A stretch of 57,774 nt of DNA from an uncultured delta proteobacterium. GTDB lineage: Bacteria > Myxococcota > UBA727 > VGSZ01. Every line of letters begins with the position of its first letter. Positions within the stretch are counted from its first letter, which is position 1. The DNA is taken from positions 336,616 through 394,389 of the forward strand of contig CAVZJB010000009.1 in assembly GCA_963775425.1 (NCBI GenBank), given 5' to 3'. Both the position numbers and the translations under genes were made by a program. The notes under the pieces were generated by a model. It was not told the origin of the DNA and searched no databases. It saw only the letters and a program-made list of their open reading frames with translations. Shown here piece after piece: positions 4,707 through 26,033 of the stretch.

Positions 4707-5471
4707 TCACCTCAAGTTGCTCAGACGCTGGAGCATCTGGTCGGCGCTCTGGATGACCTTCGAGGACATCTCGTAGGAGCGCTGCGCGGTGATGAGGTCG
4801 ATCATCTCCTCGACGGTCTTCACGTTGGCGCCCTCGAGCATCCCCTGCTGCAGGGTCCCGGCGCCGTCGCTGCCGGGCGCGGTGATGAGCGGCTCGCCGC
4901 TCGCCTCCGTCGCCTTCAGCATGGTGTCTCCGAGCGCCTGGAGGCCGCCGGGGTTCGCGAACACGGCGATGTCGAGCTGGCCGAGCACCTGCGGCGCGTC
5001 GCGCCCCGGGACCGTGGCGCTGACGCGCCCGTCGCGGTCGATGGTGACGGACGTGGCGTCCTCGGGGACCTCGATGCCGGGCTCCATGAGCAGGCCGTTT
5101 TGCGTCACGAGCTGCCCGGTGCCATCGACGCGCAGGTTCCCCGCGCGCGTGTACGCGACCTCGCCGTCGGGCGTGCGCACCTGGAAGAACCCGTTGCCCT
5201 GGATGGCGACGTCGAGCGGGTTCTGCGTGTTGATGAGGTCGCCCTGGCCGAAGTCGCGCGTGGTGGCCGCCACCCGCACGCCGAGGCCGCTCTCGAGCGG
5301 CGCCGGCTGACCCGCGGGCGCCGCGAGCTGCTCGACGAGGAGATCTTCGAACTCCGCGCGCGCCTTCTTGAAACCCGTGGTGGTCGCGTTCGCGAGGTTG
5401 TTCGCGACCACGTTCATCTTGGTCTCTTGCGCGATCATGCCGGTGGCGGCGATGGACAAAGAACGCATCAT
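4707..5471 (-). CDS. flgG: flagellar distal rod protein FlgG
   Basis: 254 aa from internal ATG (MMRSLSIAATGMIAQETKMNVVANNLANATTTGFKK ... VEEMIDLITAQRSYEMSSKVIQSADQMLQRLSNLR), a full-length FlgG signature. Start overlaps the flgF stop (ATGATG). Confidence 0.95.
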   Translation of the reverse strand: MMRSLSIAATGMIAQETKMNVVANNLANATTTGFKKARAEFEDLLVEQLAAPAGQPAPLESGLGVRVAATTRDFGQGDLINTQNPLDVAIQGNGFFQVRTPDGEVAYTRAGNLRVDGTGQLVTQNGLLMEPGIEVPEDATSVTIDRDGRVSATVPGRDAPQVLGQLDIAVFANPGGLQALGDTMLKATEASGEPLITAPGSDGAGTLQQGMLEGANVKTVEEMIDLITAQRSYEMSSKVIQSADQMLQRLSNLR

Positions 5472-6166
5472 GCGCGGATCCTCCCGATCTCGGCCGCGCG
5501 CTGATCGAGCGAGCGCGACGTTTGAATGGCTTGCATCGCGTGGTCGTAGGCGCGCTGCGCGCTCACGAGGTTGACGGTGGCGTCGAGCGCTGAGGCGTTG
5601 CTGCCCTCGAGCTCCCCGCTGTGCACGCGGGCCTGCACCGGCTCCGCCGCCGCCGGATCCGCCGGCGCGACCATGGTGGGCGCGACGCGGACGACCTCGC
5701 CGCCGAGGCGCGCGAGCAGGAGCGAATCGACGACGGCGCCGTTTTGCAGCACGCGCCCCTGCGCGTCGATGCTGACGTCGCCGGCGCCGGGTGTGACGAT
5801 GACGGGGTTGCCCGACGCGCCGAGGACGGCGTGACCGGCGGAGAGGAGCTGGCCTTCGGCGTCTATCTGCAGGGCGCCGTCGCGGGTGAAGCCGCCGTCG
5901 ACGCCGAGCCAGACGCCCTCGTCGAGGCGCACGTCGAGCGGCCGGCCGGTGGTGGTGGTGGGACCCTCGCGTACGTCGACGCCGGTGTCGGCGGCGGCGA
6001 CGTACGCGGGGCCGCTCGGCGCCTCCTTTGGCAGGAACGCCTCGAAGCGCGGCGTCTCCGCGCGGAAGCCGGGCGTCTCTGCGTTGCTGAGGTTGTCGGC
6101 GATGGCGTCGAGCTGACGGAGCCTCGCGCTCGCGCCGGCCATGCCGATGTAGATGCCGTCGGTCAT
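5468..6166 (-). CDS. flgF: flagellar proximal rod protein FlgF
   Basis: 232 aa: MTDGIYIGMAGASARLRQLDAIADNLSNAETPGFRAE ... LVSAQRAYDHAMQAIQTSRSLDQRAAEI, the rod/hook N- and C-terminal heptad segments. First gene of the minus-strand flgFGAHIJMNK run. Confidence 0.92.
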   Translation of the reverse strand: MTDGIYIGMAGASARLRQLDAIADNLSNAETPGFRAETPRFEAFLPKEAPSGPAYVAAADTGVDVREGPTTTTGRPLDVRLDEGVWLGVDGGFTRDGALQIDAEGQLLSAGHAVLGASGNPVIVTPGAGDVSIDAQGRVLQNGAVVDSLLLARLGGEVVRVAPTMVAPADPAAAEPVQARVHSGELEGSNASALDATVNLVSAQRAYDHAMQAIQTSRSLDQRAAEIGRIRA

Positions 6167-6275
6167 GGAAATGGCATCGACGGCTCGCTGACGTTCCTTG
6201 AGAGATCCGCGCGACGGACCTCTGGCGCACGCGGATCAGCTCCAGCGAGGGCGCGCCGATGACGATGGTGCCCAC

Positions 6276-6674
6276 ATGGGACTCGACCCGGTCTTGAAGG
6301 TCCGCGCCGCCGCCGAGCTCGCCGCGCGCCGCCGCCTCGCCGCCGCCGTGAAGGCGGCTGAGGACGCGCGCCGCGTCGCCGAGGAGGCGCGCGCGCTGGT
6401 GATGAAAGCCGAGAGCGCCGGCGGCGCCGCGTGGCTCATCGAGGTGCACGACGTGGGACATCGTCGCTCCGTCGATGCCCTCACGCGCGCCGAACAGGAC
6501 CGCGCCCGCGCCGAGAGCGCCGCCGACCAGGTCCGCGGCGCCCACGTCGAGGCGCGCATGCACCTCCGCGTCATCGAGCGCGTCGTCGAAGAGCGCGATC
6601 TCGAGGCGCGCCGCGAGGCCGCGCGCAAAGAGCAGCGCGAGCAAGACGAGCGCTCCGCCGCCCGCTTCTCCTGA
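6276..6674 (+). CDS. FliJ-like coiled-coil protein (candidate flagellar export component), lone plus-strand gene between two minus-strand operons
   Basis: Internal ATG of the 158-aa plus ORF (MGLDPVLKVRAAAELAARRRLAAAVKAAEDARRVAEEARALV ... EARREAARKEQREQDE). Pattern LDPVLKVR + REAxRKEQREQDE recalls the FliJ N- and C-terminal heptads. GC3 is strongly biased in this frame, whereas the antisense frame is Ser/Arg-rich. fliJ is missing from its usual place after fliI. Confidence 0.5.
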   Translation: MGLDPVLKVRAAAELAARRRLAAAVKAAEDARRVAEEARALVMKAESAGGAAWLIEVHDVGHRRSVDALTRAEQDRARAESAADQVRGAHVEARMHLRVIERVVEERDLEARREAARKEQREQDERSAARFS

Positions 6675-6746: not shown

Positions 6747-7442
6747 TCAGGCGAGGGCGAGGCGCAGCTTGGCGACGGCGGCGTTGTGGATCTGACACAC
6801 GCGCGGCTCGCTCACGCCGAGGACCGCGGCGATCTCTTTGAGCGTCAATTCTTCGACGTAGCGCAGCGAGAGCACCGCCTGGTAGCGGTCGGTGAGCGTC
6901 GCCACGGCGTCGCGCAGCGCGGCCGCGCGCTCCCGGCCCACGATCAGCTCGTCGACGTGCGTGTCGCCGCTCGCCACCGGCCCCGCGTCCTCGAGCGGCC
7001 TGTGCGCTTCGTTCGCCTTTTCGAGCCGGTCGACCTCGCGCATGTCGACGTCGAGCGCGCCCGCGATCTCGTCGCGCGACGGCGCCCGGCCGAGCGCCGT
7101 GGTGAGCTCGTGGCGCTTCTTCTCCAGCGTGGCCACGCGGCCGCGGAGCCGGCGCGGCAGGCGGTCCATGCGGCGCAGCTCGTCGAGCATCGCCCCGCGG
7201 ACCCGGTGGCTGACGAACCCCTCGAGCTTCACGCCGCGCGCGGGGTCGTACCGCTTCATCGCGTCGAGCAGGCCGAGCGCGCCTGCCGACCACAGGTCGT
7301 CCGCGTCCACGCCGGTGCGCGCGGCCAGCGCCAGCGCCGCCCGGCGCACGACGTGGCCGAAGCGCTTCAGGATCTCGTTGTCGTCGGCCGGCGCCGCCGC
7401 ATACCGCTGCAGCGCGTATTGCGTGTTGCTCGTCGTGGTCAT
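6747..7442 (-). CDS. fliA: flagellar sigma factor FliA (sigma-28)
   Basis: 231 aa from internal ATG (MTTTSNTQYALQRY...). Region 2 (DLWSAGALGLLDAMKRYDP, RRMDRLPRR) and region 4.2 (YVEELTLKEIAAVLGVSEPRVCQIHNAAVAKLR) are recognisable. ATG overlaps flhG stop (ATGA). Last gene of the flhA-flhF-flhG-fliA unit. Confidence 0.9.
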   Translation of the reverse strand: MTTTSNTQYALQRYAAAPADDNEILKRFGHVVRRAALALAARTGVDADDLWSAGALGLLDAMKRYDPARGVKLEGFVSHRVRGAMLDELRRMDRLPRRLRGRVATLEKKRHELTTALGRAPSRDEIAGALDVDMREVDRLEKANEAHRPLEDAGPVASGDTHVDELIVGRERAAALRDAVATLTDRYQAVLSLRYVEELTLKEIAAVLGVSEPRVCQIHNAAVAKLRLALA

Positions 7443-8347
7443 CCAGCAGACTCCCGGAACATGCGATCCCAAAACACCGACAGGCGCCCGCCCGCACCGC
7501 CGTCGGCGCCGTCGAGGACCCGGCGCTCCACCCGCGCGAGGGCGAGGCTCGCGCTGGCGTTCGGCGACAAATCCACCACCGCCCGGCGCGCCATCACCGC
7601 GCGGCGCACGGACTCGTCGCGCGGCACCCCGCCGGCGAAGCGCAGCCGCACGGGAAGGAAGCGCCCCGCGACCGCGGCGAGGCGGCCGAAGGAGTCGCGC
7701 GCGTCGGCGTCGGACATGGCGCAGTTGACGACGACGTCGACGGCGTCCACGCCCACCTGCGACAGCGCCTTCACGGCGGCGTAGGCGTCGATGAGGCAGG
7801 TGGGCTCCGCGTTCACCGTGAGCACACAGGTGCTCGCGGCGGACGCAAAGAACATGACGTTGCCGCCGATGCCCGCGCCGCAGTCGATGAGCACGAGGTC
7901 GAAGTCCTGCTCGACGAGCGCCAGCTCCTCCAGGATGCGTCTGCGGCTGCCGCCGTCCAGGTCGGCCAGCGCGCGCACGCCGCTGCCCGCCGCGAGGATC
8001 TTCACGCCGGACGGCCCATCGGCGATGGCGTCGCGGATGCCCGCGGTGCCCTCGATGACGTCCTCGATGGTGTAGCGGGCGCGTGCCTGCAGGATGACGT
8101 CGACGTTGGCGAGCCCGAGGTCGCCGTCGATGAGCAGCACGCGCACGCCGCGGCGCGCTGCGAGCACGGCGAGGTTGGTGCTCAGGAACGTCTTTCCCAC
8201 GCCGCCCTTTCCGCTCGCGACGGCGACGCAACGCGCCTTCGCCGTCGAGGGGGCCGGGCCGCGCTCGTCGCGCCGGTGCGCGTTCACGAGCACGCGGAGG
8301 CCGCCGGCCTGGTCGTCGTTCGAAGCGGGGTCCAGCTCGGGGGTCAC
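7439..8347 (-). CDS. flhG: flagellar number regulator FlhG (MinD/ParA-family ATPase, FleN/YlxH)
   Basis: 302 aa with deviant Walker A (VAVASGKGGVGKT) and LLIDGDLGLANVD. GTG start overlaps flhF stop (GTGA). Conserved flhF-flhG-fliA synteny. Confidence 0.9.
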   Translation of the reverse strand: MTPELDPASNDDQAGGLRVLVNAHRRDERGPAPSTAKARCVAVASGKGGVGKTFLSTNLAVLAARRGVRVLLIDGDLGLANVDVILQARARYTIEDVIEGTAGIRDAIADGPSGVKILAAGSGVRALADLDGGSRRRILEELALVEQDFDLVLIDCGAGIGGNVMFFASAASTCVLTVNAEPTCLIDAYAAVKALSQVGVDAVDVVVNCAMSDADARDSFGRLAAVAGRFLPVRLRFAGGVPRDESVRRAVMARRAVVDLSPNASASLALARVERRVLDGADGGAGGRLSVFWDRMFRESAG

Positions 8348-9417
8348 AGGAGCTCCTCGGTGAACGCACGCACATCGAAGGCGTGCAGGTCTTCGGGCAC
8401 GCGCTGCCCGTCGGTGAAGCAGGTGACGGCGCGGGCGAGGACGGCGGCGACGTTCACGAGCCCGCCTCGGCCGTCGGCTTCGTCGAGCTTGGTGACGACG
8501 ATGCCGCTCGTCGCCAGCGCCGCGTAGCGTTCGCGCAGCGCCCGGAGCTGCTTCACGCTCGATCCCGCGGCGGCCGCCAGGTGGATCTCGACGTCGGGCG
8601 CGCTCTTCAACACGGTGAGCTGCTGCGCGAACGTCTCGGTCTCGAGCGGCGAGCGGCCCGCCGTGTCGATGAGGACGAGGTCGGCGCGCGCGGTGCGCGC
8701 GAGCACCTCGGCGAGGGCCTTGGCGTCACGCGCGACGTACGTCGCGAGGTTCATGATCTCGCCGTAGCGCCGCAGTTGGTCGACGGCGCCGATGCGCCAG
8801 GTGTCGATCGTGACGAGCGCGACCGACAGCTTGGTGTCGAGGAGCGCGCGCGCGGCCATCTTGGCGATGGTGGTGGTCTTGCCGACGCCGGTGGGGCCGA
8901 CCAGCGCGACCACCCGCCGGCGCGGCGCGGGCGGCGCCGTCCACGGCGCGTCGCCCGCGCAGAGCACCTCGTCGAGCGTCGCGCCGACGCCGTCGGCGAG
9001 CGCCCGCCGCCGCGGGAGGCGCGCGGCGCGCTCGACGAGCCTGCGCGCGATGACCTCGGCGACGCCGGCGTCGACGAGGCGCGCCACCACCGCTTCGGGC
9101 GCGCACGCGGCCCCGGACGGCGGCGCCAACGGGCCGGCGTCGTTGAAGATGCCGCGCGGCTCGCTGCTGTGCGCCGCGGCCGGCGTCGGCGCGTGGAGGG
9201 CCGGGCGAGCGCCGGGCGCGCGGGCGAGGATCTCGATCTCCATCGGCCCGCGGGCGCTGCGCACCTCGCGCGTCGACAGGAGGATGGCGTCGCCGCCGAG
9301 CGCGCGCCTGACGGCGTCGAGGGCCGCGCGGGGCGTGGCGCCGCGGAAGGCGTGTGCGTCGACGGCAGCGTCGGCGGCGGCGCCGGGGCGGGAAGACGGA
9401 GGGGCGAGGTCGAGCAT
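8344..9417 (-). CDS. flhF: flagellar biosynthesis SRP-type GTPase FlhF
   Basis: GVGKTTTIAKMAA (G1), DTAGR (G3), TKLDE (G4), SRP-GTPase-like. Start moved from the ORF-track TTG (9432) to the in-frame ATG at 9417 (MLDLAPP), which has AAGGAG 7 nt upstream. The flhA stop then lies 12 nt before it. Confidence 0.88.
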   Translation of the reverse strand: MLDLAPPSSRPGAAADAAVDAHAFRGATPRAALDAVRRALGGDAILLSTREVRSARGPMEIEILARAPGARPALHAPTPAAAHSSEPRGIFNDAGPLAPPSGAACAPEAVVARLVDAGVAEVIARRLVERAARLPRRRALADGVGATLDEVLCAGDAPWTAPPAPRRRVVALVGPTGVGKTTTIAKMAARALLDTKLSVALVTIDTWRIGAVDQLRRYGEIMNLATYVARDAKALAEVLARTARADLVLIDTAGRSPLETETFAQQLTVLKSAPDVEIHLAAAAGSSVKQLRALRERYAALATSGIVVTKLDEADGRGGLVNVAAVLARAVTCFTDGQRVPEDLHAFDVRAFTEELL

Positions 9418-9428
9418 CCGGGCTCCTT

Positions 9429-11504
9429 TCAAGCGGCCAGCGCCTGCGGCTGCACCTGCAACACGCCGGCCGGCTCGATGGTCGTCGAGGGAAGAAGCTC
9501 ACGCGCGCACACCACCTGCAGGTCGGGGATGAAGCGCGAAGCGAAGTCGAAGAGCGCGCGGCGCAGATTGGGGGGCGCGAGCACCACCACGGGGCCGCCG
9601 GCGGCGAGCATCTTGGTGGCGTGCGCTTCGAGCCGGTCGATGAGCCTGCGCGCGTTGTCCACGTCGAGCGCGAGCACCGGTTCGCCGTCCGACGCGCCCA
9701 CGGCCTGGCGGAGCATGTGCTCGGTGGCGCGGTCGATGGTGATGGCGCGGGCGACGCCGTTTTCGCCGGCGACGTGCGCGGTGATCTGGCGCGCCAGCCG
9801 GCGGCGCGCGTGCTCGACGAGATACACCGGGTCCTTGCTCTTGGGCGCGCTCTCGGCCACGGCCTCGAGCACCGTGCGCAGGTCGCGCACCGAGACGCCC
9901 TCGCGCAGCAAGCCGCGCACGACGGCGACGATGTCGCCGAGCGAAGCGATGGCGGGCACCACGTCCTCCACCAGCTTCGGCGCGTCCTTGGCCACCACGG
10001 CGATGAGCTCCTGCACCTCCTGGCGGCCCACGAGCTCGGCGGCGTTCCTGCGCAACAGCTCGCCGAGGTGCGTGGTCACCGTCGACGGCCCGTCGACGAT
10101 GGTGAGGCCGAGGATCTCCGCATCGGTGCGGCGGTCGGTCGGGATCCACTTCGCCGGCAGCCCGAAGGCCGGCTCGCGCGTGGCGATCCCCTCGATGGCC
10201 GGCTCGGCTCCGCTCGGGTCGAGGACCATCAAGCGATCGGCGTAGGCGGTGCCGCGGCCGATCTCGTGCCCACGCAGCAGCACGCGGTAGGTGTTGCCGT
10301 CGAGCCCGAGCTCGTCGCGCAGGTGCACGGCGGGCAGCAGGATGCCGAGGTCGCCCGCGATGCGTTTGCGCAGCGCCGCCACGCGTCCGGGCAGCTCGCC
10401 GCCGCGGGCGGTGTCGATGAGGGGGACGAGGTCGCCGCCGAGCTCGAGCTCGAGGGCGTCGAGGCTCAGGAGATCGTACGGGCGCTCCTCCTTCGGTTTG
10501 CCGCCCGCCGCGCCCGCGTCGCCCGCCGCGCCGGAGGCGGAGGCGGCGTCGGGCGCGCGGCGCACGAGGCGCGCGACGAGGAGGAGGCCGGACCCGATGG
10601 CGAGCATGACGAGCGTCGGCATGCCGGGGATGAGCGCGAGCACGCCGAGCATCCCGGCCGCGCCGAGGAGGACGGCGGGGTCGCGCGTCATCTGCCCCTT
10701 GAACGCGTCGCCGAGGTCCCCGCTCGTGCCCGCGCGCGTGACGACGAGCCCCGCGGCGGTGGAGACCAGCAGCGCCGGCATCTGCGAGACGAGCCCGTCG
10801 CCGATGGTGAGGATGGTGTACGTCTCCGCCGCCTTCTGGAGGCTGAGGCCGTCGCGCGCGAGGCCCGCGATGAGCCCGCCGGCGATGTTGATGAGGATCA
10901 CCGCCAGGCCGGCGACGGCGTCGCCGCGCACGAACTTGGATGCGCCGTCCATGGCGCCGAAGAACTCCGTCTCCTGTTCGAGCCTGCGCCGGCGGGTGCG
11001 CGCCGTGTTTTCATCGATGAGGCCGGCGGCGAGGTCGGCGTCGATGGACATCTGCTTGCCGGGCAACGCGTCGAGAGTGAAGCGCGCGGCCACTTCGGAG
11101 ATGCGTCCGGAGCCCTTGGTGATGACGGCGAAGTTGACGACCAGGAGGATGACGAACACCACGGAGCCGATGAGGACGCTGCCGCCGACGGCGAAGCGGC
11201 CGAAGGCCTCGACGATGTGGCCGGCGGCGCCGTGGCCCTCGCTGCCGTGAAGGAGGATGAGCCGCGTGGTGGAGATGTTGAGCGCGAGCCGCAAGAGCGT
11301 GATGAGCAGCAGCAGCGAAGGAAACACGCTCAGGTCGAGCGGGTCGCGCAAGCGGAGCGCCACCAGGAGCACCAACACCGACGCCGCGATCGTCGACGCG
11401 AGCAGCGCGTCCACCGCCAAAGCCGGCAGCGGGATGACGAGCGTCGCCAGGATTCCGACGACGGCGACGGCGAGGACGTTCGCGCTGCTGTTCGACGAGG
11501 ACAT
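9429..11504 (-). CDS. flhA: flagellar type III export gate protein FlhA
   Basis: 691 aa from internal ATG (MSSSNSSANVLAVAVVGILATLVIPLP). Transmembrane N-half plus cytoplasmic C-half with FlhA hallmarks (VITKGSGRISEVAARFTLDALPGKQMSIDADL, GAMDGASKFVRGDA). GGAAG lies 6 nt upstream. Confidence 0.95.
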   Translation of the reverse strand: MSSSNSSANVLAVAVVGILATLVIPLPALAVDALLASTIAASVLVLLVALRLRDPLDLSVFPSLLLLITLLRLALNISTTRLILLHGSEGHGAAGHIVEAFGRFAVGGSVLIGSVVFVILLVVNFAVITKGSGRISEVAARFTLDALPGKQMSIDADLAAGLIDENTARTRRRRLEQETEFFGAMDGASKFVRGDAVAGLAVILINIAGGLIAGLARDGLSLQKAAETYTILTIGDGLVSQMPALLVSTAAGLVVTRAGTSGDLGDAFKGQMTRDPAVLLGAAGMLGVLALIPGMPTLVMLAIGSGLLLVARLVRRAPDAASASGAAGDAGAAGGKPKEERPYDLLSLDALELELGGDLVPLIDTARGGELPGRVAALRKRIAGDLGILLPAVHLRDELGLDGNTYRVLLRGHEIGRGTAYADRLMVLDPSGAEPAIEGIATREPAFGLPAKWIPTDRRTDAEILGLTIVDGPSTVTTHLGELLRRNAAELVGRQEVQELIAVVAKDAPKLVEDVVPAIASLGDIVAVVRGLLREGVSVRDLRTVLEAVAESAPKSKDPVYLVEHARRRLARQITAHVAGENGVARAITIDRATEHMLRQAVGASDGEPVLALDVDNARRLIDRLEAHATKMLAAGGPVVVLAPPNLRRALFDFASRFIPDLQVVCARELLPSTTIEPAGVLQVQPQALAA

Positions 11505-11514
11505 CGGGGCTTCC

Positions 11515-11540
11515 GTGTTCACGACTCGTGCCACGAGCGC
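11515..11540 (-). promoter_or_regulatory. conserved 15-nt element TGGCACGaGTCGTGA upstream of flhA (copy 1 of 2)
   Basis: Minus-strand reading ...GCTCGTGGCACGAGTCGTGAACACGGAAGCCCCG-ATG. Contains a TGGCAC (-24-like) hexamer and the inverted repeat CACGA-g-TCGTG. The same element recurs at ~12497-12520 upstream of the second fliA-family gene. Coordinates approximate. Confidence 0.4.
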
Positions 11541-11661
11541 GGCGCTCGAGGAGCGCATGACAGCGCGACGTCGTCATCGCGCCGACGCTTTCGTGCGCGC
11601 AAACATTTGACGCCGCGCCATGCTGTTGACGACGACGAATGCCGCGGTGACGACGACGAAT

Positions 11662-11706
11662 TGAAAAAAGACGAAGCCGGCACTCCGTGAGGAGTGCCGG
11701 CTTCGA
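11662..11706 (-). terminator. intrinsic terminator downstream of the second fliA-family gene
   Basis: Perfect 14-bp stem GAAGCCGGCACTCC / GGAGTGCCGGCTTC with a GTGA loop. Read on the minus strand it is followed by TCTTTTTTCAATTCG. Lies about 45 bp after the stop at 11748. Coordinates approximate to a few nt. Confidence 0.7.
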
Positions 11707-11747
11707 GGGACGACGTCGCGGGGGGGAAACGACGCGCCCCTGGGGGA

Positions 11748-12461
11748 TCAAGCGAGGTCGATGTCGTCGACGAGCTCGGCGCGGAGCTTGATGATGGCCT
11801 GGCCGTGGAGCTGGCAAGCGCGCGACTCGGTGATCTGGAAGATCATGCCGATCTGCTTCAGCGTGAGCTCCTCGACGTAGTAGAGCGAGAGCAACTGGCG
11901 CGTGCGGAGCGGGAGGCGCGCGATGGCGGCGGTGAGGCGCTGCTTACGCTCACGCAACTCGAGCGCCTGGTTCGGCGTGGGCGTCTCGCCGTCGAAGGAA
12001 TCGAAGCCGTCCTCGCGGAGGTCTTCCACGCTGACGACGCCGGCGACGCCGCCGACGGAGCGCGCGGAGACACCGAGGTACCCGGCGAGCTCCGACGAAT
12101 CGGGCGCGTGGCCGAGCGTGTGCTTGAGCTTGCGGTCGGCCTCGTCGAGGCGACGGTTGCGCGCCCGCACCGACCGCGGGAGCCAGTCCATCGCGCGGAG
12201 GTGGTCGAGGATGGCGCCCCGGATGCGAATCTCCGCGTACGCCGGGAAGGTCTCGGCGCGCCCCGCGTCGAAGCGCTGCGCGGCGTCCATCAAGCCGATG
12301 GTGCCGGCGCCGACGAGGTCGTCGAGGTCCACCACGCTGGGCAGCCGGCGCGCGATCTTCTTCGCGACGCGACGGACGAGGGGAAGGTGCTCGTCGACGG
12401 AGAGGGTCTCGGTGGTGGTGGCGGCGGCGGCGGCATGAGCTGTGTTCATCATCGGGTTCAC
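11748..12461 (-). CDS. second FliA/WhiG-family (sigma-28-like) sigma factor
   Basis: 237 aa (GTG start with GGGAAG upstream). Region 2 GTIGLMDAAQRFDAGRAETFPAYAEIRIRGAILDHLRAMDWLPRSVR and region 4 YVEELTLKQIGMIFQITESRACQLHGQAIIKLR parallel the first fliA but are clearly divergent. Separated from flhA by a terminator. Confidence 0.85.
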   Translation of the reverse strand: MNPMMNTAHAAAAATTTETLSVDEHLPLVRRVAKKIARRLPSVVDLDDLVGAGTIGLMDAAQRFDAGRAETFPAYAEIRIRGAILDHLRAMDWLPRSVRARNRRLDEADRKLKHTLGHAPDSSELAGYLGVSARSVGGVAGVVSVEDLREDGFDSFDGETPTPNQALELRERKQRLTAAIARLPLRTRQLLSLYYVEELTLKQIGMIFQITESRACQLHGQAIIKLRAELVDDIDLA

Positions 12462-12494
12462 CTTGCGCTTCCCTGCGCAGGCATCCCTTACTCA

Positions 12495-12522
12495 CGACGC
12501 GTGCCAGCGATTTCGCTGCGTC
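12495..12522 (-). promoter_or_regulatory. conserved 15-nt element TGGCACGcGTCGTGA upstream of the second fliA-family sigma gene (copy 2 of 2)
   Basis: Minus-strand reading TGGCACGCGTCGTGAGTAAGGGATGCCTGCGCAGGGAAGCGCAAG-GTG. Identical to copy 1 except the central base. The -12 position reads GA rather than GC, so a canonical sigma-54 promoter is doubtful. The palindromic CACG-N-(G)TCGTG favours a dimeric regulator site. Confidence 0.4.
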
Positions 12523-12697
12523 CGGACGCGAAGCAGCCACGCGGGGGGAGTCGCGCGGACCTCAGCCGGGCCGGTTTGGCGAGGGTGCGCTCGACCCACC
12601 GGGGGTCGGTCGTACTCGGGTAGACCTGCTCATCGATCGTGGCGGGGCACGCGGGGGCCGAGCCCCGCCGCACGAAGCGCGCGGACGAGCCAACGCT

Positions 12698-14143
12698 CTA
12701 CAGAGATTCGCCCTCGCCGGACGTGGAGGTCTCCCCGCCGAGGCCGGACTCGCGGAGCAGGCGCTTGAAGTTCGAGCAATCCATGCCGGCGTCGCGCGCG
12801 GCCTGCGAGATGTTTCCGCCGGAGGCTTTGAGCTTGGCGTTCAGATACGTGCGCTCGAACGCGGAGAGCGTCGCCTTCTTGGCCTGCGCGTAGGGGAGGT
12901 GCGCGACGCCGGCGGCCTCGACGTCGGCGAGCGGGACCGCGCCGCCGATGCCTGGCGGGAGCTGGGCCGCGTCAATCTCCTGGCCGGGGCACAACACGAT
13001 GGCGCGCGCCACGGCGTTTTCGAGCTCGCGCACGTTACCGGGCCAGTCGTGGGTGGTGAGGGCGTGGACCGTGGCGTCGGAGAAGCCGTTGACGCTCTTC
13101 TTCATCCGCTCGCGGTGCTTCAGCAGGAAGTGGTGCGCGAGCAGCATGATGTCCTCGGGCCGCGACGCGAGCCGCGGCAGGTCGATGGCGAGGACGTTGA
13201 GCCTGTAATAGAGGTCTTCGCGAAACGTCTTCTTCTGGATGGCGGCTTCGAGGTCGACGTTGGTGGCGGCGATGACGCGAACGTCCACGATCACCACGTC
13301 GTTGCTGCCCACGGGCTTGATCTCGCCCTCCTGCAGCGCGCGCAGCAGCCGCACCTGCGTGGCGGCCGAGATGTCACCGATCTCGTCGAGGAAGAGCGTG
13401 CCGCCGTCGCTCGCCTCGAACAGCCCCTTGCGGTTGGACACCGCGCCGGTGAAGGCGCCCTTCACGTGGCCGAACAGCTCGCCCTCGAGCATGCTCTCGG
13501 AGAGCGCCGAGCAATTCACCGCGTGAAACGGCTTCTTTGCCCGGTCGGAGCGGCGGTGGATGGCGCGCGCCACCAGCTCCTTGCCCGTGCCGCTCTCCCC
13601 CCGCACGAGCACCGTGGCCGGCGTCGGGCTGACGGCTTCGATGAGCTGGAAGACCTCGCGCATCTTGGCGCTTTGCCCGATGAGCTCCTCGAAGCCCTCC
13701 TTGGCCTCGAGCATGCGCTCGAGGTTGTTGTTGCGCGCGATGAGGCGGTGATGCTCGAACGCGCGCCGCACCGTGAGGACAATCTTCTCGAGCGAGTCGA
13801 AGGGCTTGGTGAGGTAGTCGAACGCGCCAGCCTTCACCGCCTCCACCGCGGTCTCCACAGACGAGCTGGCGGTCATCATCACCACGGCCAGGTGGGGGCG
13901 ACGATTCTTGATGTCTTTGAGGATTTCGAGCCCGTTGATCTTCGGGAGCATGACATCGAGGACGGCGACGTCGACCGCGCCGTCTTCGCTCAGAGTGCGG
14001 TGCGCCTCCGCGGCGTCGGCAAATCTCACCACCTCGCACCCGCCGCGCTCGAGAACGCGGCTCACCGCCATGAGGACACCGGGATCGTCGTCGACGACGA
14101 CCACCCTCGGCCGGTCCTGATTCCCGTCATTGCTCGCCGCCAT
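12698..14143 (-). CDS. sigma-54-dependent response regulator (NtrC/FlrC-type: REC + AAA+ sigma-54 activator + HTH)
   Basis: Internal ATG (MAASNDGNQDRPRVVVVDDD). Receiver domain, then GESGTGKELVARAIH (Walker A), GAFTGA, GTLFLDEIGD, NVRELEN, and C-terminal HTH (NISQAARDAGMDCSNFKRLL). The upstream 156 codons of the ORF-track reading look like wrong-frame text. Confidence 0.9.
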   Translation of the reverse strand: MAASNDGNQDRPRVVVVDDDPGVLMAVSRVLERGGCEVVRFADAAEAHRTLSEDGAVDVAVLDVMLPKINGLEILKDIKNRRPHLAVVMMTASSSVETAVEAVKAGAFDYLTKPFDSLEKIVLTVRRAFEHHRLIARNNNLERMLEAKEGFEELIGQSAKMREVFQLIEAVSPTPATVLVRGESGTGKELVARAIHRRSDRAKKPFHAVNCSALSESMLEGELFGHVKGAFTGAVSNRKGLFEASDGGTLFLDEIGDISAATQVRLLRALQEGEIKPVGSNDVVIVDVRVIAATNVDLEAAIQKKTFREDLYYRLNVLAIDLPRLASRPEDIMLLAHHFLLKHRERMKKSVNGFSDATVHALTTHDWPGNVRELENAVARAIVLCPGQEIDAAQLPPGIGGAVPLADVEAAGVAHLPYAQAKKATLSAFERTYLNAKLKASGGNISQAARDAGMDCSNFKRLLRESGLGGETSTSGEGESL

Positions 14144-15062: not shown

Positions 15063-15394
15063 ACGACAAGTACCTGTTCCTCATCCGCGACGACGCGTTC
15101 GGCAAGACCAGCGCGCGTACGCTCGGCACGCAGTTGATGGCCCTCGGCCACACCGTGTTCCTTTCGGACACCGACGAGGACCTCGAAGTCTTCGGAGAGG
15201 TCGTCGACGCCTTCGTCGAGATCAGGCCGGACGGAGACGCGCCGCAAGCGGTCCTCTACGCGTGGGCAGACCACGCGCGGCCGTCGCGGCAGGCCTTGCT
15301 CGAGAAGGCGACGGTACTGCTGCCCGCGGACGACGCCGCGCTCAGCGTGTTTTCGAAGAACCTCGTCGCTGCTGGTGAAGGGAGAACGCAATGA
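15059..15394 (+). CDS. hypothetical protein (possible degenerate receiver-like fold)
   Basis: 111 aa. ATGA overlaps with both neighbours. High GC3. KYLFLIRDDAFGK resembles a receiver N-terminus, but no clear phospho-acceptor context. Confidence 0.55.
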   Translation: MNDKYLFLIRDDAFGKTSARTLGTQLMALGHTVFLSDTDEDLEVFGEVVDAFVEIRPDGDAPQAVLYAWADHARPSRQALLEKATVLLPADDAALSVFSKNLVAAGEGRTQ

Positions 15395-15879
15395 CCTCGA
15401 CCGTCAAGATCCTGTTCGTCGACGATGAACAGCTCATCCTCAACGCTCTCAAACGGACGCTTCGCCGCGAAGGCTTCGAGCTCTTTTTCACGGCGGACCC
15501 GCTCGAGGTCCAGAAGCTCGTCGGCGAGCACCGCATCGACATCGTGGTCAGCGACCACATGATGCCGCAGATGACCGGCGTCGAGGTCCTCGCGCTCGTG
15601 CGCCGCCTCCACCCCAACACCACCCGCATCATGATGACGGGGCAGGCGGACCGTCAGGCCACCATCCGCGCCATCAACGAGGGGAACATCCACCGCTTCA
15701 TCGAGAAGCCGTGGGACGACAACGAGCTCAAGAACGTCCTCCACGAGGCCGCGCGCTCCATCCTCGTCCGCCGCGCCGCCAGCGCCGGACCCGACGTCGC
15801 GATCGCGAGCAAGAGCTTCCACCGCACCATCCTCCGCGATGCGCGTGGCGCAATCGTCCTCGACGCAGCGGCGAAGTGA
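15391..15879 (+). CDS. single-domain response regulator (CheY-like receiver)
   Basis: 162 aa: KILFVDDEQLILNALKRTLRREGFEL ... DIVVSDHMMPQMTGVEVL ... IMMTGQAD ... KPWDDNEL, a complete REC domain. Start overlaps the upstream stop (ATGA). Confidence 0.9.
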   Translation: MTSTVKILFVDDEQLILNALKRTLRREGFELFFTADPLEVQKLVGEHRIDIVVSDHMMPQMTGVEVLALVRRLHPNTTRIMMTGQADRQATIRAINEGNIHRFIEKPWDDNELKNVLHEAARSILVRRAASAGPDVAIASKSFHRTILRDARGAIVLDAAAK

Positions 15880-15883: not shown

Positions 15884-17602
15884 GTGAAGGCCGCGCTCTC
15901 CGCACTCCTGATCGGGGATCCGGGCTCGCCGTGGATGGCGCGCACGACCTCCATCCTCGGGCAATACGGGGCCGACTTCATCGTCGCCGACGGGTTTGGT
16001 GAGGCCACGGAGGCGTTTTCGGACGTCGACGTGGTGGTGGTCCACGTCACGCCGGGCGGAGACCCGCTCGTCGAAATCGCAGCCCTTTGGGAGGTCCGGG
16101 CGCAGGTGCCCGTCATCTTCCTCGGCGACGACATCGACGACGATCTCCGCTCGGCCGCGTTCGAGGCCGGCATCGCCCATGTCACGCGCGGAGAGCCCAC
16201 GCCCGAAGAGCTCATCGCGATGATGCACATGGCGACCGAGCAGAGCAGGGTCGGCTCGCCGGAGCTCGTGCGCGCCATGTGCCGGACCATGTGCACGCTG
16301 TCGACGCTGGTGGCGTCGGCGAAGGACACGAGCTTCCTCGGCGCCGCCGTGCTCCAGGTGAGCGCGCTGTTTCAGGCCCCCATCGTGTCGATCATGCTGT
16401 TCGACGACGACGATCCCCACGCGCCCCTCCGCGTGGTGGCCCAGGTGGGCCTCGGCGCGGGCGCGGTCTTCTCGTCGCCGCGGCGAGGCGGCGTGGCCGA
16501 GCGCGTGGCGCACGCGCGCGTCCCGCGCATCATCCTGCGCGACGCAAAGCGCGACGACGCGTTCCCGGGCGTGGCGGGCCGCGCCGAGATCACGGGTTCC
16601 ATGTGCGTGCCCATTCCGGCCACCACCTTCGGTGGCGCGGTCGCGCGCCCGCGCGGTGTCATCAACGTCGCCAAGACCCGGCCGTGCGCCGTGTTCACGC
16701 CGCGCGACCTCGACGTGTGCGTCTCTCTCGCCGGACTCATCGGCGACGCCCTGATGCTCATGGAGAGCCGCGAGCTCCACAACACCCTGCAGCAGCGCCT
16801 TCAGGCCGTCGAGCGCTTGAGCACCGTCGGCGAGATCGCCGGCGGCATCGCGCACGAGGTGGCCAACCCCATCAGCTGCGTGCGCGCCAACGTCGACACG
16901 ATGATCGAGTATATGCGCGACCTCGGGCCCGTCCTGCAGCAGGCCGACGAGGACCACCCGGAGCTGCGCCCCATCCTCGACGACCTTCCGTCGGTGCTGT
17001 GCGAGACCTGGGAGGGCCTCGCGCGGGCCGAGGACGTCGTGCGCCAGATGAAGGCGCTGGTTCGCATGAACGGACCCGTCGGGCGCGACGAGCGCGTGTC
17101 CCTCTCCCACCTCGTCGAGGACAACATGCGGCTGCTCCGGCCCCGGCTGCGGGTGCCCGTCGAGCTCAACCTCGAGAACGACGTCGTGGTGCGGGGCTCC
17201 ACCGTGGAGCTGTCGCAGGCGTTCCTGAACCTCATCGTGAACGCCGCCGACGCGTGCGAGGAGCGACACCTGAAAGAGCCCGAGCTCGAGCCCAAGGTGA
17301 AGGTCGGCGTGGCCGTGGACGGCAAGAACGCCGCCATCCACGTCGTCGACAACGGCGCCGGTATGCCCGCGGACGTGATGAAGCGGATCTTCCTGCCGCT
17401 GTTCACCACCAAGAGCGGCGAGCGTGGCACCGGCCTCGGGCTCAGCATCGTTCGTCGCGTGGTGGAGGAGCACGGCGGCAACGTACGCGTGCACTCCACG
17501 CCCAACTCCGGGACCGCGTTCATCGTCACGCTGCCCCTGATGGACGGCGCCGCGGACTCGCGGGCCCCGGTCGACGCGGACGTCATCGGCCCGATGGCTT
17601 GA
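15884..17602 (+). CDS. sensor histidine kinase with a GAF-like sensory region (HisKA + HATPase_c)
   Basis: H-box ERLSTVGEIAGGIAHEVANPIS. N, G1 and G2 boxes present (LIVNAADA, VDNGAGMP, GTGLGLSIV). GAF-like stretch upstream. Start set to the in-frame GTG at 15884 just after the receiver stop. The ORF-track ATG at 15839 would overlap the receiver gene by 41 nt. ATG 15935 is an alternative. Confidence 0.8.
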   Translation: MKAALSALLIGDPGSPWMARTTSILGQYGADFIVADGFGEATEAFSDVDVVVVHVTPGGDPLVEIAALWEVRAQVPVIFLGDDIDDDLRSAAFEAGIAHVTRGEPTPEELIAMMHMATEQSRVGSPELVRAMCRTMCTLSTLVASAKDTSFLGAAVLQVSALFQAPIVSIMLFDDDDPHAPLRVVAQVGLGAGAVFSSPRRGGVAERVAHARVPRIILRDAKRDDAFPGVAGRAEITGSMCVPIPATTFGGAVARPRGVINVAKTRPCAVFTPRDLDVCVSLAGLIGDALMLMESRELHNTLQQRLQAVERLSTVGEIAGGIAHEVANPISCVRANVDTMIEYMRDLGPVLQQADEDHPELRPILDDLPSVLCETWEGLARAEDVVRQMKALVRMNGPVGRDERVSLSHLVEDNMRLLRPRLRVPVELNLENDVVVRGSTVELSQAFLNLIVNAADACEERHLKEPELEPKVKVGVAVDGKNAAIHVVDNGAGMPADVMKRIFLPLFTTKSGERGTGLGLSIVRRVVEEHGGNVRVHSTPNSGTAFIVTLPLMDGAADSRAPVDADVIGPMA

Positions 17603-17697
17603 TCAGCGCGGCCGCTCCCTCCGGTCGCTGATCCGCGCGGCCGCTCCCGGGTGAGCAAGTCCGCTCACGCGAATGGATCAGGCTCAAGTCCACCGCC

Positions 17698-19393
17698 GTG
17701 CCGCCGATGGTGTGCGCAGAAGCGAACACATTGGAGGCAGTTGTGGTTTCAGTCGCACTTCAGATCCTCGACGTCCTGCGGGAAAACGGCGTCGACACCG
17801 TCTTCGGCATCCCCGGCGGCGCCATCTCACGCGTCTACGCCGAGCTGGTGAACCGCCCCGGCATCCGCGTGGTGAACGCGACGCACGAGACGAACGCCGT
17901 CTTCATGGCCATCGGGCATGCGCTCGCCACGGGCAAGCCCGCGGTGGCGTTGACGACGTCGGGCCCGGGCTTCACCAACGCCCTGACCGGGCTCGCCTCC
18001 GCGCAGGCGGACGGCGTCCCCGTGCTCGTCATCTCCGGCGAAGTGCCGCGCTCCGCCTTCGGGCGGGGGGCGTTGCAGGAGGGGATCGTCCTACGGCTTC
18101 GACGCGCTCGCCATGGCGCGGCCCGTCTGCAAGTTCGCCACGCAACTGGCGCGCCCCAACGCGGCGGTGACCACCGTTCGCAAGGCATTGGCGACGATGC
18201 AGTCCGGCAAGCCGGGGCCGGCGTTCATCTCCTTGCCGCTCGACATCTCCAACGCCGACGTTGCGCAGCAGACCTACGCCGGCCACCCGCACCTCACGTT
18301 CGAGATCGATCAGGTGGCCTGCCGCAACGCCGCGGAGGTCCTCTGCAAGGCGAAGCGGCCGCTCCTCGTCGTCGGCGCGGGCGCGCGGGCCACCAAGGAT
18401 CGCCAGGCGATCGCGGAGCTGGCGCACCGCACGCGCACCCCCGTGGCGGTGACGCCCAAAGGCAAGGGCGTGTTCGCTGAAGACGACGAGCTCTACCTTG
18501 GTGTGCTCGGCTTCGGCGGACACGAGTCCGTGATCGACTACCTGAAGCAGGAGCCCGACGTCATCCTCGTGGCCGGCTCGTCGCTCAATGACTTCGCCAC
18601 GAACGCGTGGACCCCGCTGCTCGGCACCGCCAAGACCTTCATCCAGATCGACGTCGACGCGGGGCAGCTCGGCAAGAACTACCCGGTCGACATCGGCCTG
18701 CTCGGACCGCTGCACGAGATCATGGGCGAGATGCTGCTTCACACCTGCGACGGCTGTGATCGCGAGCCGTATCCGCGCCTGCGCTTCCAGACCGTTCCCC
18801 CTTCGCCGAGCGGAGCCATCACCACCGTCGACGCCGTTCAGATCATGAACGAGGTGTGCCCACGCGACGCGGTGTTCACCTCGGACATGGGAGAGCACCT
18901 CGGCATCGCCCTCCACTTTCTGCGCACCCGCACGCCGGGATCCTTCGTGACGTGCCTCGGCTTCGGCTCGCTCGGATCCGGCGTGGTCTCCGCCATCGGC
19001 CTGGCGCTCGGTGATCCTCGCCGTCGTGCGTACGCCATCTGCGGCGACGGTGGCTTCCTCATGTCCGGCAACGAGCTGCAGAGCGCGGTGTTGCACGAGG
19101 CGCCGGTCACCTTCGTCCTCATGAACGACAGCCGCTACAACATGTGTCACCACGGCATCAAGGCGCTCTACGGGGCGACCGGCGTCTGCGACATCGGCGC
19201 GGTCGACTTCGCGAAGGTGGCTGACGCGTTCGGGGCCCAGGGTCGCATCGTGCGCACGCCGCGAGAGCTGGTCGACGGGCTCCGCTTGCGCGGGGGGCCC
19301 GTCGTCCTCGACGTCAGAATCGATCCGGAGGTGCGCTTGCCGGCGAGTCAGCGCGAAGCAGGTCTCAAGAGCTTCAAGGATGGTGCAAAGTGA
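17698..19393 (+). pseudogene. thiamine-diphosphate-dependent enzyme (acetolactate-synthase/benzoylformate-decarboxylase family), reading frame broken by a +1 shift near 18080
   Basis: Frame 1 (17698-) gives the TPP_N domain (VDTVFGIPGGAISRVY...TSGPGFTNALTGLASAQADGVPVLVISGEVPRSAFGRGALQEG) and then degenerates into Arg-rich text. A +1 frame continues correctly with SSYGFDALAMARPVCKF (equivalent to the IlvB QEVDTYGISIPITK segment), then the central and TPP-binding domains (GDGGFLMSGNELQSAV). The junction lies in a GAGGGGA run. Genuine frameshift or sequencing error cannot be told apart. Confidence 0.6.
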
Positions 19394-20475: not shown

Positions 20476-20518
20476 CCGGAGTGCACGTCGATGGATTCGA
20501 TCGGTTAGCATCCCCACC

Positions 20519-21118
20519 GTGGTTCTCAGCGCACCTCCCGAGGGCTTCACGATTCCGGATTTCAGCGCGCCGCTCGACGTCGACGCGTACCTGAGTCGGC
20601 TCCCCGCGGGCGCGACGTTCAAGGGCACGGTGGCGGCGGCGACGTTGAACACCCTGCGGACCGCGAACGTCGCGCCACCGACGACCAAGGTCTACACGGA
20701 ATTCCGCGACTACCCGATGCACGAGCTCCTCGAGCTGAACATCGCGAGCGCGCGGGCGCTCTGTCCCGACCTTCCTGTGCGGGAGGGGCTGAGGAGAATC
20801 GGCCGCGCGCTCTTTCCGACGTTCGCGCAGACGCTCATCGGGAGGGTCATGTACGGGGTCTTTGGCGGCAACGTCTCGGCGATCTTTCGGCTCGCCAACA
20901 AGAGCTTCGAGATCACACAGAACACCGGCAAGGTGCGCACCGAGGTCCTCGGCAAAGACACCGTGCTGCTCGCCTTCACCAACACCTACACGTTCCTGAG
21001 TAGTTATCACTACGGCGTGCTCGAGGGCGCGCTCGAGCGTTGCGGGGTGCGCGGCGAGGTGTGGTTCCGCGAGGCGTCGCCTTCCGAGGGAGAGTTCTTC
21101 GTCGCGTGGTCGCCGTAG
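20519..21118 (+). CDS. hypothetical protein resembling the Myxococcus-type paralogous family TIGR02265 / DUF2378
   Basis: 199 aa from GTG (VVLSAPPEGFTIPDF). RALCPDLPVREGLRRIGRALFPTFAQTLIGRV ... YHYGVLEGALERCGVRGEVWFRE matches my recollection of that family. Start is uncertain: no ATG in frame between the fabH-like stop and this GTG. High GC3. Confidence 0.45.
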   Translation: MVLSAPPEGFTIPDFSAPLDVDAYLSRLPAGATFKGTVAAATLNTLRTANVAPPTTKVYTEFRDYPMHELLELNIASARALCPDLPVREGLRRIGRALFPTFAQTLIGRVMYGVFGGNVSAIFRLANKSFEITQNTGKVRTEVLGKDTVLLAFTNTYTFLSSYHYGVLEGALERCGVRGEVWFREASPSEGEFFVAWSP

Positions 21119-23732: not shown

Positions 23733-23762
23733 GCACAGGCCGGGCTTAAGTGCACAGGCCGG
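23733..23762. repeat. direct repeat GCACAGGCCGG x2 (19-bp register) in the divergent kinase / HDOD intergenic region
   Basis: CGGCACAGGCCGGGCTTAAGTGCACAGGCCGGCGCG read from the sequence. Lies between the divergent starts at 23668 (-) and 23871 (+). Coordinates approximate. Confidence 0.6.
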
Positions 23763-23870
23763 CGCGCCGATGACCGATCCGACGTGTCAGCACCAGCCGC
23801 TCCGAGGAACGCCTTGGTCGCCGACCTCTCGGCGGTGGAGCCACGCGCGCTCGCGAGCGTGGAGCGGTTG

Positions 23871-24653: not shown

Positions 24654-24703
24654 ATCGCGCGCGCACCCTTAACTCCGGGGCCGTTTGCGACGACTTCACA
24701 GAC

Positions 24704-26030: not shown

Positions 26031-26033
26031 GAC

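Follow-up and report, generated by a model that had tools for sequence, protein, structure and literature searches.

Flagellar hierarchies are the textbook case of an assembly ordered by switches between sigma and anti-sigma factors, and to our knowledge every scheme for a single flagellum that includes the anti-sigma factor FlgM has a single sigma-28. What, then, might two sigma-28 factors do in one flagellar cluster? The question is raised by a 58-kb stretch (about 72% G+C) of a 394-kb contig from an uncultured lineage in the Myxococcota, which are best known for gliding motility; the term "window" refers below to this whole stretch. Two genes of the FliA family of sigma-28 factors bracket its flhA-flhF-flhG unit: sigU, directly upstream of flhA, and sigD, directly downstream of flhG. 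We found that this branch has retained a pair of ancient sigma-28 paralogs within a single flagellar cluster, and we propose, as a reading that is plausible but short of probable, a three-level cascade for one flagellum, from sigma-54 through the two sigma-28 paralogs to the remaining genes, in which SigU would serve early and middle operons and SigD late ones.

Two FliA-family genes bracket flhA-flhF-flhG

Genes were called by codon-position GC and named with NCBIfam and Pfam. By this annotation the window has a single, complete set of flagellar genes, with each structural gene in one copy; two flagellar systems were ruled out, as no structural gene was duplicated within the window. The region around the sigma genes contains the following features, with lengths in nucleotides (nt), base pairs (bp) or amino acids (aa).

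6747-7442, minus strand: sigD, encoding a FliA-family sigma factor of 231 aa and ending the flhA-flhF-flhG-sigD operon
7439-8347, minus strand: flhG, a MinD/ParA-type ATPase (MinD-family matches), its position kept in all related loci
8344-9417, minus strand: flhF, a GTPase of signal recognition particle type (TIGR03499, 179.8 bits against a cut-off of 174.15)
9429-11522, minus strand: flhA, the export gate (TIGR01398, 789 bits)
11518-11533, minus strand: sigma-54-type promoter before flhA, TGGCACGAGTCGTGAA
11662-11705, minus strand: intrinsic terminator 3' of sigU (stem-loop 11705-11672, with a 15-bp stem containing 11 GC pairs, a 4-nt loop and the T-run tail TCTTTTTTCA)
11748-12461, minus strand: sigU, a canonical-looking FliA-family sigma factor, monocistronic in the window
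12491-12506, minus strand: sigma-54-type promoter of sigU, TGGCACGCGTCGTGAG
12518-12529, no strand assigned: palindrome GCGTCCGGACGC, 11 nt upstream of the sigU promoter, the single exact copy in the window
12698-14143, minus strand: sigma-54 enhancer-binding response regulator (NtrC-family matches)
15391-15879 and 15884-17602, plus strand: response regulator and GAF histidine kinase (Pfam matches)

A first-pass annotation, made from the sequence alone, had assigned 6747-7442 to fliA in the conserved flhA-flhF-flhG-fliA position, and the assignment held. The best NCBIfam match of SigD was the FliA_WhiG model TIGR02479 (188.3 bits, E 1.5e-55), at a score 1.3 bits under the curated cut-off of 189.6; PRK06986 gave 168.3 bits (cut-off 201), the next subfamily, SigB/F/G, gave 96, and Pfam sigma regions 2, 3 and 4 were all present. 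The sigD ATG overlaps the flhG stop codon by 4 nt as ATGA, and sigD is translationally coupled to flhG.

The same annotation had described a second, clearly different FliA/WhiG-type gene immediately 5' of flhA, and this gene exceeded two curated cut-offs (TIGR02479, 210.5 against 189.6 bits; PRK06986, 207.1 against 201), with 84.6 bits for the SigB/F/G model. Translation from GTG 12461 would give SigU 237 aa, and from ATG 12452 it would give 234 aa, the length of database entry P0001; the ATG is most likely the start, because it has the ribosome-binding site AAGGTGA and agrees with that entry. Pfam matched regions 2 and 4 of SigU, so that these two regions were recognized in both proteins, as had been noted; region 3 had no Pfam match, yet it aligned with high posterior probability. 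SigU aligned end to end with the solved FliA structures 9wsm and 6pmi and the WhiG structure 6pfv, scored 147 bits against Pseudomonas aeruginosa FliA (9wsm), and exceeded SigD by about 40 bits against the solved FliA/WhiG structures. An alignment of SigU with SigD over 203 aa gives 40% identity. Both genes are intact and of group-3 FliA/WhiG type, SigD with a score marginally below the family cut-off; a pseudogene, or membership in the extracytoplasmic function (ECF) or another sigma subfamily, was ruled out for each. The strong terminator reported between sigU and flhA was also present, and the 225-bp spacer contains only this terminator and the flhA promoter. The flhA start is ambiguous, with in-frame candidates at ATG 11504, GTG 11522 and ATG 11558.

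Some sigU-type proteins elsewhere (5371-5943 in locus L095; P0042, encoded at 10001-10597 in L010; and many homologs of 188-208 aa) are without about 40 residues of region 3 and are essentially two-domain sigma-28 factors with a layout like that of ECF sigma factors.

The two proteins belong to separate clades

The best 120 database homologs of SigU and of SigD formed disjoint lists, and every match was much nearer to one of the two paralogs; the source names were Myxococcota, Myxococcales, Polyangia and "Deltaproteobacteria" metagenome-assembled genomes (MAGs). These names and a DUF2378 protein encoded in the window put the organism with uncultured Myxococcota-like bacteria. In a neighbour-joining tree of 217 sequences, which included Escherichia coli FliA, P. 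aeruginosa FliA and Streptomyces venezuelae WhiG taken from PDB alignments, the relatives of SigD made up one clade of 120 sequences (100/100 bootstraps, computed on a 51-taxon subsample), a Myxococcota-type flagellar clade. SigU fell into a 56-member group that lies alongside the three reference proteins and whose separation from the remaining generic FliA proteins is only weak (54/100). The tree distance from SigU to the references was 1.05-1.10, compared with 1.27 from SigU to SigD. A scan of species-representative genomes with SigU gave four matches, all distant. As the two proteins lie in separate clades, that of SigD at 100/100, the split between them is ancient by this comparison. An old rather than recent duplication had been suggested; the age of the split stood, but a duplication within the lineage was not shown, since SigU is nearer to E. 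coli and P. aeruginosa FliA and to Streptomyces WhiG than to SigD. A recent tandem duplication was ruled out by the 40% identity and the separate clades.

We mapped the contacts in the open complex and FlgM complex structures of P. aeruginosa FliA (PMC12784957) onto both clades, using P. aeruginosa numbering. The base-contacting residues in that sigma-28 structure are R80, D87, R90, R97 and Q228 (PMC12784957), and both clades keep all of these as well as R100. SigU is identical to P. aeruginosa FliA at Y76, R80, D87, R97, S224 and Q228, and keeps W94 and S98 too. The SigD clade alone has the fixed changes Y76F, I79H, W94H (R in the window's subclade), S98R, V99L and S224P, which lie beside DNA-contacting residues, S224P being inside the −35 helix. 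Position 104, where a basic residue is important in E. coli sigma-28 (PMC12784957), is acidic or neutral in the SigD clade, in contrast to R104 in SigU and generic FliA. The window's SigD itself has Y76F, I79H, W94R, S98R, R104A and S224P. Among 31 SigD-clade sequences 29 columns are invariant, including all core and DNA-contact arginines. Judged by these alignments, it is sigD, in the "conserved" position, that is derived and divergent in sequence, with its clade-only fixed changes, and sigU, the "extra" gene, that looks canonical and matches generic FliA.

Sigma-54-type promoters precede sigU and flhA

The sigma-54-type element before flhA nearly repeats the sigU element of the same genome, and the motif common to them, TGGCACG-N5-TG, has two occurrences in the 58 kb, before sigU and before flhA only. 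In both, the −24 element TGGCAC is perfect and the −12 element is GTGA, with T and G kept and C replaced. Locus L005 has a flhA promoter in the equivalent place, TGGCACGCGCCTTGGA, which nearly repeats L005's own sigU promoter. When nine sigU-type genes in flagellar and non-flagellar contexts were examined, an element of the form [TC]GGCA[CT]-N5-NTGN was present 30-70 nt upstream of every one, in some cases with CTGC or TTGG at −12. A generic sigma-54 consensus scan was too noisy on its own at 72% GC. From their motifs and positions, the sigU and flhA elements are probable sigma-54 promoters.

The palindrome upstream of the sigU promoter, probably a regulator binding site, recurs at the equivalent place in L005 (GCGTCTGGACGC), in L009 and, twice, in L010; L095 has a near match. 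The response regulator gene at 12698-14143, which has a 72% identical ortholog near the L010 sigU-type gene, encodes a candidate activator of the sigU and flhA promoters. It is one of two sigma-54 activators encoded inside the window.

Sigma-28-type promoters precede flagellar operons

The flagellar genes are arranged in the following order.

Minus strand, read in the direction of transcription: response regulator of sigma-54 enhancer-binding type (12698-14143), sigU, flhA, flhF, flhG, sigD, flgF-like, flgG, a 103-aa open reading frame (ORF), flgH, flgI, M23 peptidase, flgM, flgN-like ORF, flgK (3-1085)
Plus strand: HDOD protein, PilT-like ATPase, flbD, motA, motB; receiver-less sigma-54 activator (27654-28739); flgB through flhB, ending at 44637

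A search for −35 and −10 elements of sigma-28 type, which the first-pass annotation had envisaged, was run within the window and revealed an enriched promoter family before flagellar genes. Candidate promoters of the kind read by FliA/WhiG factors (TAAA-N15-GCCGATAA type) were present there, and the pattern T[CA]A[AG]-N15-GCCGAT[AG] had 5 matches against 0.11 expected, all intergenic and each facing a gene; a looser GNCGAT pattern gave 12 matches against 1.8 expected. As these patterns were derived from the same data, the statistics are optimistic, and the location of the matches carries more weight. The five matches face fliJ, a thiamine pyrophosphate (TPP)-enzyme operon, the motAB operon, fliH and a DUF6901 operon, and a sixth site, with a spacer of N14, lies before the activator that heads the flgB operon. 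The CGAA variant of the −10 element was not enriched in the window (1 match against 1.7 expected).

6170-6197, minus strand: CTCAAG...GTCGAT, promoter of the flgF-flgG-...-flgI-flgM operon
6236-6261, plus strand: TCAG-N15-GCCGATG, promoter of fliJ (6276-6674)
17684-17709, plus strand: CTCAAG-N14-GCCGATGG, before a non-flagellar operon for a TPP-dependent enzyme, a KAS III-like enzyme and DUF2378 (a myxobacterial paralogous family), which with its promoter spans 17684-21118
23747-23772, plus strand: TAAG-N15-GCCGATG, promoter of the HDOD/PilT-like/flbD-motA-motB operon
27581-27605, plus strand: TCAG-N14-GCCGATG, before the receiver-less sigma-54 activator heading the flgB...flhB operon
33787-33812, plus strand: TCAA-N15-GCCGATG, between fliG and fliH
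46863-46888, minus strand: sigma-28-type promoter before DUF6901 and HD/HDOD genes

Two candidate criteria were discarded. CTCAAG as a stand-alone −35 marker was uninformative, with 36 matches in the window, mostly Leu-Lys codons, and a division into two −10 classes (CGAT and CGAA) inside the window was rejected, as only CGAT was enriched.

Related loci with one or both sigma genes

The twin arrangement sigU-flhA-flhF-flhG-sigD (type A) was present in four lineages: the window; L005/L006, whose SigU and SigD are 61% and 63% identical to the window's; L009 (52% and 53%); and L095 (about 50% and 61%). In L009 the gap between sigU and flhA is 12 bp and in L095 sigU abuts flhA; in these loci the five genes form one operon. 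The four type-A SigD proteins lie in one 13-member subclade, apart from the type-B proteins in 99/100 bootstraps. In type B, the order is fliR-flhB-flhA-flhF-flhG-sigD with no second sigma gene within 10 kb (L011, from GCA_049841135.1, and L096, L017 and L019, each with enough upstream sequence), whereas in the twin-sigma clusters flhA is separated from flhB. When metagenome contigs were scanned with a SigD alignment, 80 loci were returned, 6 of the SigD clade and 74 with canonical FliA from other lineages; no second FliA-type gene was found in these 74, which include 26 with at least 2 kb of sequence upstream of flhA.

Genes of the sigU type also occur without a flagellar gene within 10 kb, in L007/L008, L010 (GCA_016177705.1), L012 (GCA_030685175.1), L013 and L014, which fits the earlier suggestion that one of the sigma factors might have a role, in part, outside the flagellum. 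The receiver and GAF kinase genes upstream of the window's sigU have orthologs beside sigU-type genes in L006, L010 and L013. The island upstream of the window's sigU is syntenic with L010 (activator 72%, receiver 69%, GAF kinase 46% and PAS hybrid kinase 50% identical); L013 has receiver and GAF kinase genes next to its sigma gene, and L007 and L008, two contigs of one lineage, have neither these nor FlgM.

The promoter of flgF differs between the two cluster types. In type A it is of sigma-28 type, CTCAAG-N14/15-G.CG.. in the window, L005 and L009 and TCAG-N14-GTCGAA in L095; in type B (L096, L019, L015 and L011) it is TGGC[ACG][CT]-N5-TTGCT, the sigma-54 consensus. To judge from these motifs, the rod operon headed by flgF apparently moved from sigma-54 to sigma-28 control in the twin-sigma branch. 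A hierarchy variant had been predicted, and this difference between the twin-arrangement lineages and their sisters bears the prediction out.

The −35 elements also appear in two flavours. Late genes of type-B loci have CTTAAG/C-N14-G.CGAA promoters (flgM in L011, flgM and flagellin in L096), the sole type-A flagellin promoter available, that of L095, has CTTAAC, and the sigU-only loci have CTCAAG/TCAR-type promoters, including that of the flgM-like gene in L010. In this low-powered comparison of few cases, partly classified by eye and with sites lost in automated calling through mis-set start codons, there are hints that the base at −33 (C or T) might separate SigU targets from SigD targets, matching S224 and P224.

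FlgM

The flgM gene, of which a single copy had been reported, lies at 1547-1858 on the minus strand; with the window's FlgM, L011 FlgM and the L010 FlgM-like protein as queries, tblastn found no second flgM in these 58 kb, which are part of a 394-kb contig, and the genome may have another elsewhere. Its product reached 25.0 bits with PF04316, equal to the gathering score of 25, gave 33 bits with TIGR03824, under the cut-off of 40.75, and was 37% identical over 92 aa to the FlgM at the equivalent position in L011; by these scores the call is modest but real. The FlgM-interface residues R40, R82, R90, L187, L204 and Y206 are kept in both sigma factors, and so the cluster FlgM could hold back either of them or both.

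Small FlgM-family genes of 70-87 aa adjoin sigU-type genes far from flagellar genes, at 10677-10889 in L010, 9630-9842 in L012 and 10720-10983 in L014. The 70-aa proteins gave 26.2 bits (L010) and 30.7 bits (L012) with PF04316, and the L014 ORF is a weaker FlgM-like match (21.3 bits). The L010 gene has its own promoter, CTCAAG-N14-CCGATGG. With the sigma-54-type promoter invariable in the sigU clade, a sigma-28 gene driven by sigma-54 and accompanied by its own small FlgM looks like an undescribed regulatory module, one that would be widespread in Myxococcota-like genomes.

Between flgM and flgK, at about 1098-1546 on the minus strand, there is a flgN-like ORF (third-position G+C fraction 0.86) that was missed by the ORF list and the gene caller; a 118-aa ORF at 1087-1443 was rejected as a gene, being an off-frame artefact; the flgN-like gene is in another frame.

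A possible three-level cascade

In the cascade that we tentatively propose, sigma-54, the activator encoded at 12698-14143 and the GAF-kinase/receiver island would at the first level fire the two near-identical TGGCACG-N5-TG promoters, giving monocistronic sigU and, from the promoter just past the sigU terminator, flhA-flhF-flhG-sigD. At the second level both sigma-28 proteins would read T[CA]A[AG]-N15-G[CT]CGAT promoters, with the flgF...flgM-flgK rod/ring operon, fliJ, the flgB...flhB operon, the motAB operon and at least two non-flagellar operons as predicted targets. SigU would most likely have taken over the early and middle operons, which in sister lineages would be run directly from sigma-54, because it keeps the canonical DNA-reading residues and its clade elsewhere has its own FlgM and CTCAAG-type promoters. 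SigD would most likely keep the late role (flagellin, flgM), because it is clade-specific and tied to flhG in every flagellar cluster of the group.

A stricter form of this proposal, which we think unlikely, is a split regulon with separable −35 codes. SigU, with Ser224, would read the CTCAAG type and replace sigma-54 at the rod, ring, hook and export operons, and SigD, with Pro224 and without a basic residue at 104, would read the CTTAAG/C late promoters of flagellin, flgM and motor genes. The order would then run from sigma-54 to SigU to the early and middle genes, with SigD and FlgM as a late checkpoint, making four tiers with two sequential sigma-28 paralogs; we know of no flagellum for which such a hierarchy has been described.

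Several points weigh against the cascade. Every promoter in it is a motif match, to patterns drawn post hoc from the same data, and the sigU and flhA promoters depart from the consensus TGGCAC-N5-TTGCW in having GTGA rather than TTGC at −12, the one before flhA also leaving almost no leader. The −35 flavours have exceptions: the motAB promoter is CTTAAG in the window and CTCAAG in L009, and L095 flgM and L096 fliJ have the TCAR type. The correlation between the twin arrangement and flgF rewiring is one evolutionary event, not four, because the arrangement arose once, in a single subclade. The genomes of the sigD-only clusters may have sigU elsewhere, and those of the sigU-only loci may have sigD too; a comparison of NCBI accession ranges matched none of the sigU-only loci to a genome with sigD. 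The rpoN and flagellin genes lie outside the window. Finally, SigU and SigD may read the same promoters, since both keep R80, D87, R97 and Q228, and within the window there is no clean two-class split.

The last point leads to the main rival, possible but rather unlikely in our judgment, that the two sigma factors overlap in promoter specificity and differ in control, SigU providing an early, export-independent pulse and SigD being made in fixed proportion with FlhA, FlhF and FlhG, with partial redundancy between them like that of FliA1 and FliA2 in Actinoplanes. The invariance in both clades of the base-contacting residues R80, D87, R90, R97 and Q228 (PMC12784957) is what such an overlap would lead one to expect, as is the single enriched family, CGAT, in the window; in Actinoplanes, moreover, all flagellar genes are under promoters read by both FliA1 and FliA2 (PMC13083903). 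However, at seven positions beside the DNA-reading surface the SigD clade has fixed residues of its own, which is hard to square with unchanged specificity; the −35 hexamers CTCAAG and CTTAAG/C track which sigma factor is present, and both paralogs have been retained across lineages that are only 50-60% identical.

It is improbable, we think, that SigU is non-flagellar, belonging to the neighbouring signalling island and standing beside flhA as a rearrangement scar. The sigU-type genes of L007, L010, L012, L013 and L014, which have no flagellar gene within 10 kb and mostly adjoin FlgM-like, receiver or GAF kinase genes, the synteny of the island with L010, the sigma-28-type promoters before non-flagellar operons at 17684 and 46888, and the separation of flhA from flhB in twin-sigma clusters, which is consistent with a breakpoint, all fit such an origin. 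Yet sigU has become part of the flhA operon in L009 and L095, the sigU and flhA promoters of the window are near copies of each other, as are those of L005, and the presence of sigU coincides with the replacement of sigma-54 by sigma-28-type promoters at flgF.

Very improbable is the view that SigU is the working FliA for all sigma-28 promoters and that SigD is degenerating or re-purposed, for example as a weak DNA binder titrating FlgM or core polymerase: SigD does score 188.3 bits against a cut-off of 189.6 and about 40 bits under SigU against the solved FliA/WhiG structures, and it has lost the basic residue 104 important in E. coli sigma-28 (PMC12784957), but its clade is large and strongly conserved, with 29 invariant columns among 31 sequences, and it is the sole FliA-type gene in four sigD-only clusters, which keep sigma-28-type flgM and flagellin promoters.

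If the proposed partition between SigU and SigD is true, it shows a hierarchy gaining a tier through recruitment of a paralogous sigma factor, it supplies a natural sigma-28 pair whose fixed differences at 76, 79, 94, 98, 104 and 224 could map promoter specificity, and it raises the question of how one FlgM handles two sigma factors.

Relation to known systems

In polar flagellates a sigma-54-to-sigma-28 cascade is the rule, and one also occurs in Helicobacter; the flhA-flhF-flhG-fliA unit is under sigma-54 as class II in Vibrio cholerae, and the order in Pseudomonas is similar. Campylobacter likewise has a sigma-54-then-sigma-28 cascade (PMC11187230). The window resembles the polar-flagellate unit in its gene order, in the sigma-54-type promoter upstream, in two sigma-54 activators and in FlgM. 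The unit, with a single canonical FliA, is also found in 26 metagenomic loci of other lineages. The window differs in three ways: it has a second FliA-family gene upstream of flhA, which none of these loci, with at least 2 kb upstream of flhA, has (0/26); the gene in the fliA position here is from a divergent clade; and the rod, ring and export operons here have sigma-28-type, not sigma-54, promoters.

Several FliA paralogs with one flagellar system are known from Actinoplanes missouriensis, which has FliA1, FliA2 and FliA3 (PMC13083903, citing Hashiguchi et al. 2020). Besides the paralogs with a single flagellar system, we count as shared that all flagellar transcription units are under FliA-type promoters and that the paralogs control non-flagellar genes too. 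Unlike the window, Actinoplanes belongs to a different phylum, its top regulator is TcrA and not sigma-54, and flhA-flhF-flhG is not bracketed; actinobacterial clusters, moreover, are generally without FlgM (PMC12871210), unlike the window. WhiG1 and WhiG2 are subclades of the Actinomycetota in which RsiG binds WhiG2 only, and WhiG regulons span flagella, pili, cyclic di-GMP (c-di-GMP) enzymes and regulators (PMC12871210, a 2026 preprint). They are like SigU and SigD in being two ancient sigma-28 subclades within one phylum, but the clades here are not the actinobacterial ones, and the candidate anti-sigma factors are both of FlgM type (the cluster FlgM, about 100 aa long, and the FlgM next to sigU-type genes, about 70 aa long); neither the window nor any related locus showed an RsiG.

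Paired FliA and lateral sigma-28 factors (LafS/FliA-L), each with its own promoter set, occur in bacteria with dual flagellar systems such as Vibrio parahaemolyticus. Shewanella piezotolerans also has such a pair (PMC5178100). As in the window, two sigma-28 paralogs occur together, but those serve two flagellar gene sets and the window holds one. We found no description in the searchable literature of flagellar regulation in Myxococcota or of a FliA pair bracketing flhA-flhF-flhG. Actinoplanes FliA1-3 and actinobacterial WhiG1/2 are precedents, and the new part is the twin sigma-28 genes around flhA-flhF-flhG.

Other genes of the window

The fliJ gene (6276-6674) is convergent to sigD instead of lying 3' of fliI and has a weak PF02050 match; by position it is orthologous to clear FliJ genes in L011, L095 and L096. 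The ORF 3' of fliI (36071-36490) resembles MgtE_N/FliG_M. In L011, from a Myxococcales MAG, the spacer between the sigD-type gene and fliJ (10745-11478) is filled by two tandem-repeat arrays with units of about 60-65 bp, in about 4 and about 7 copies.

A PilT-like T2SSE ATPase gene lies 5' of flbD-motA-motB in the window (23814-27558), L009 (5179-8932) and L095 (2259-5126), with an HDOD protein gene ahead of it in the window and L009. The activator at 27654-28739, which heads the flgB...flhB operon behind a sigma-28-type promoter, consists of AAA+ and helix-turn-helix domains only, with no receiver; L009 and L095 have no such gene at the corresponding position. Directly 5' of flgB there is a conserved protein of 409-420 aa without a Pfam match (28740-29975 in the window, 3823-5052 in L009, 931-2193 in L095).

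A calpain-like Peptidase_C2 domain is spread over two minus-strand ORFs with a 4-nt overlap (50362-50628 and 50625-51722), either by a frameshift or as a two-gene arrangement. A 1110-aa hybrid histidine kinase (47015-50347), whose domains are GAF, PAS, three receivers and, at the C terminus, a GGDEF fragment, adjoins the HD/HDOD genes that have a sigma-28-type promoter; this may link the system to c-di-GMP signalling.

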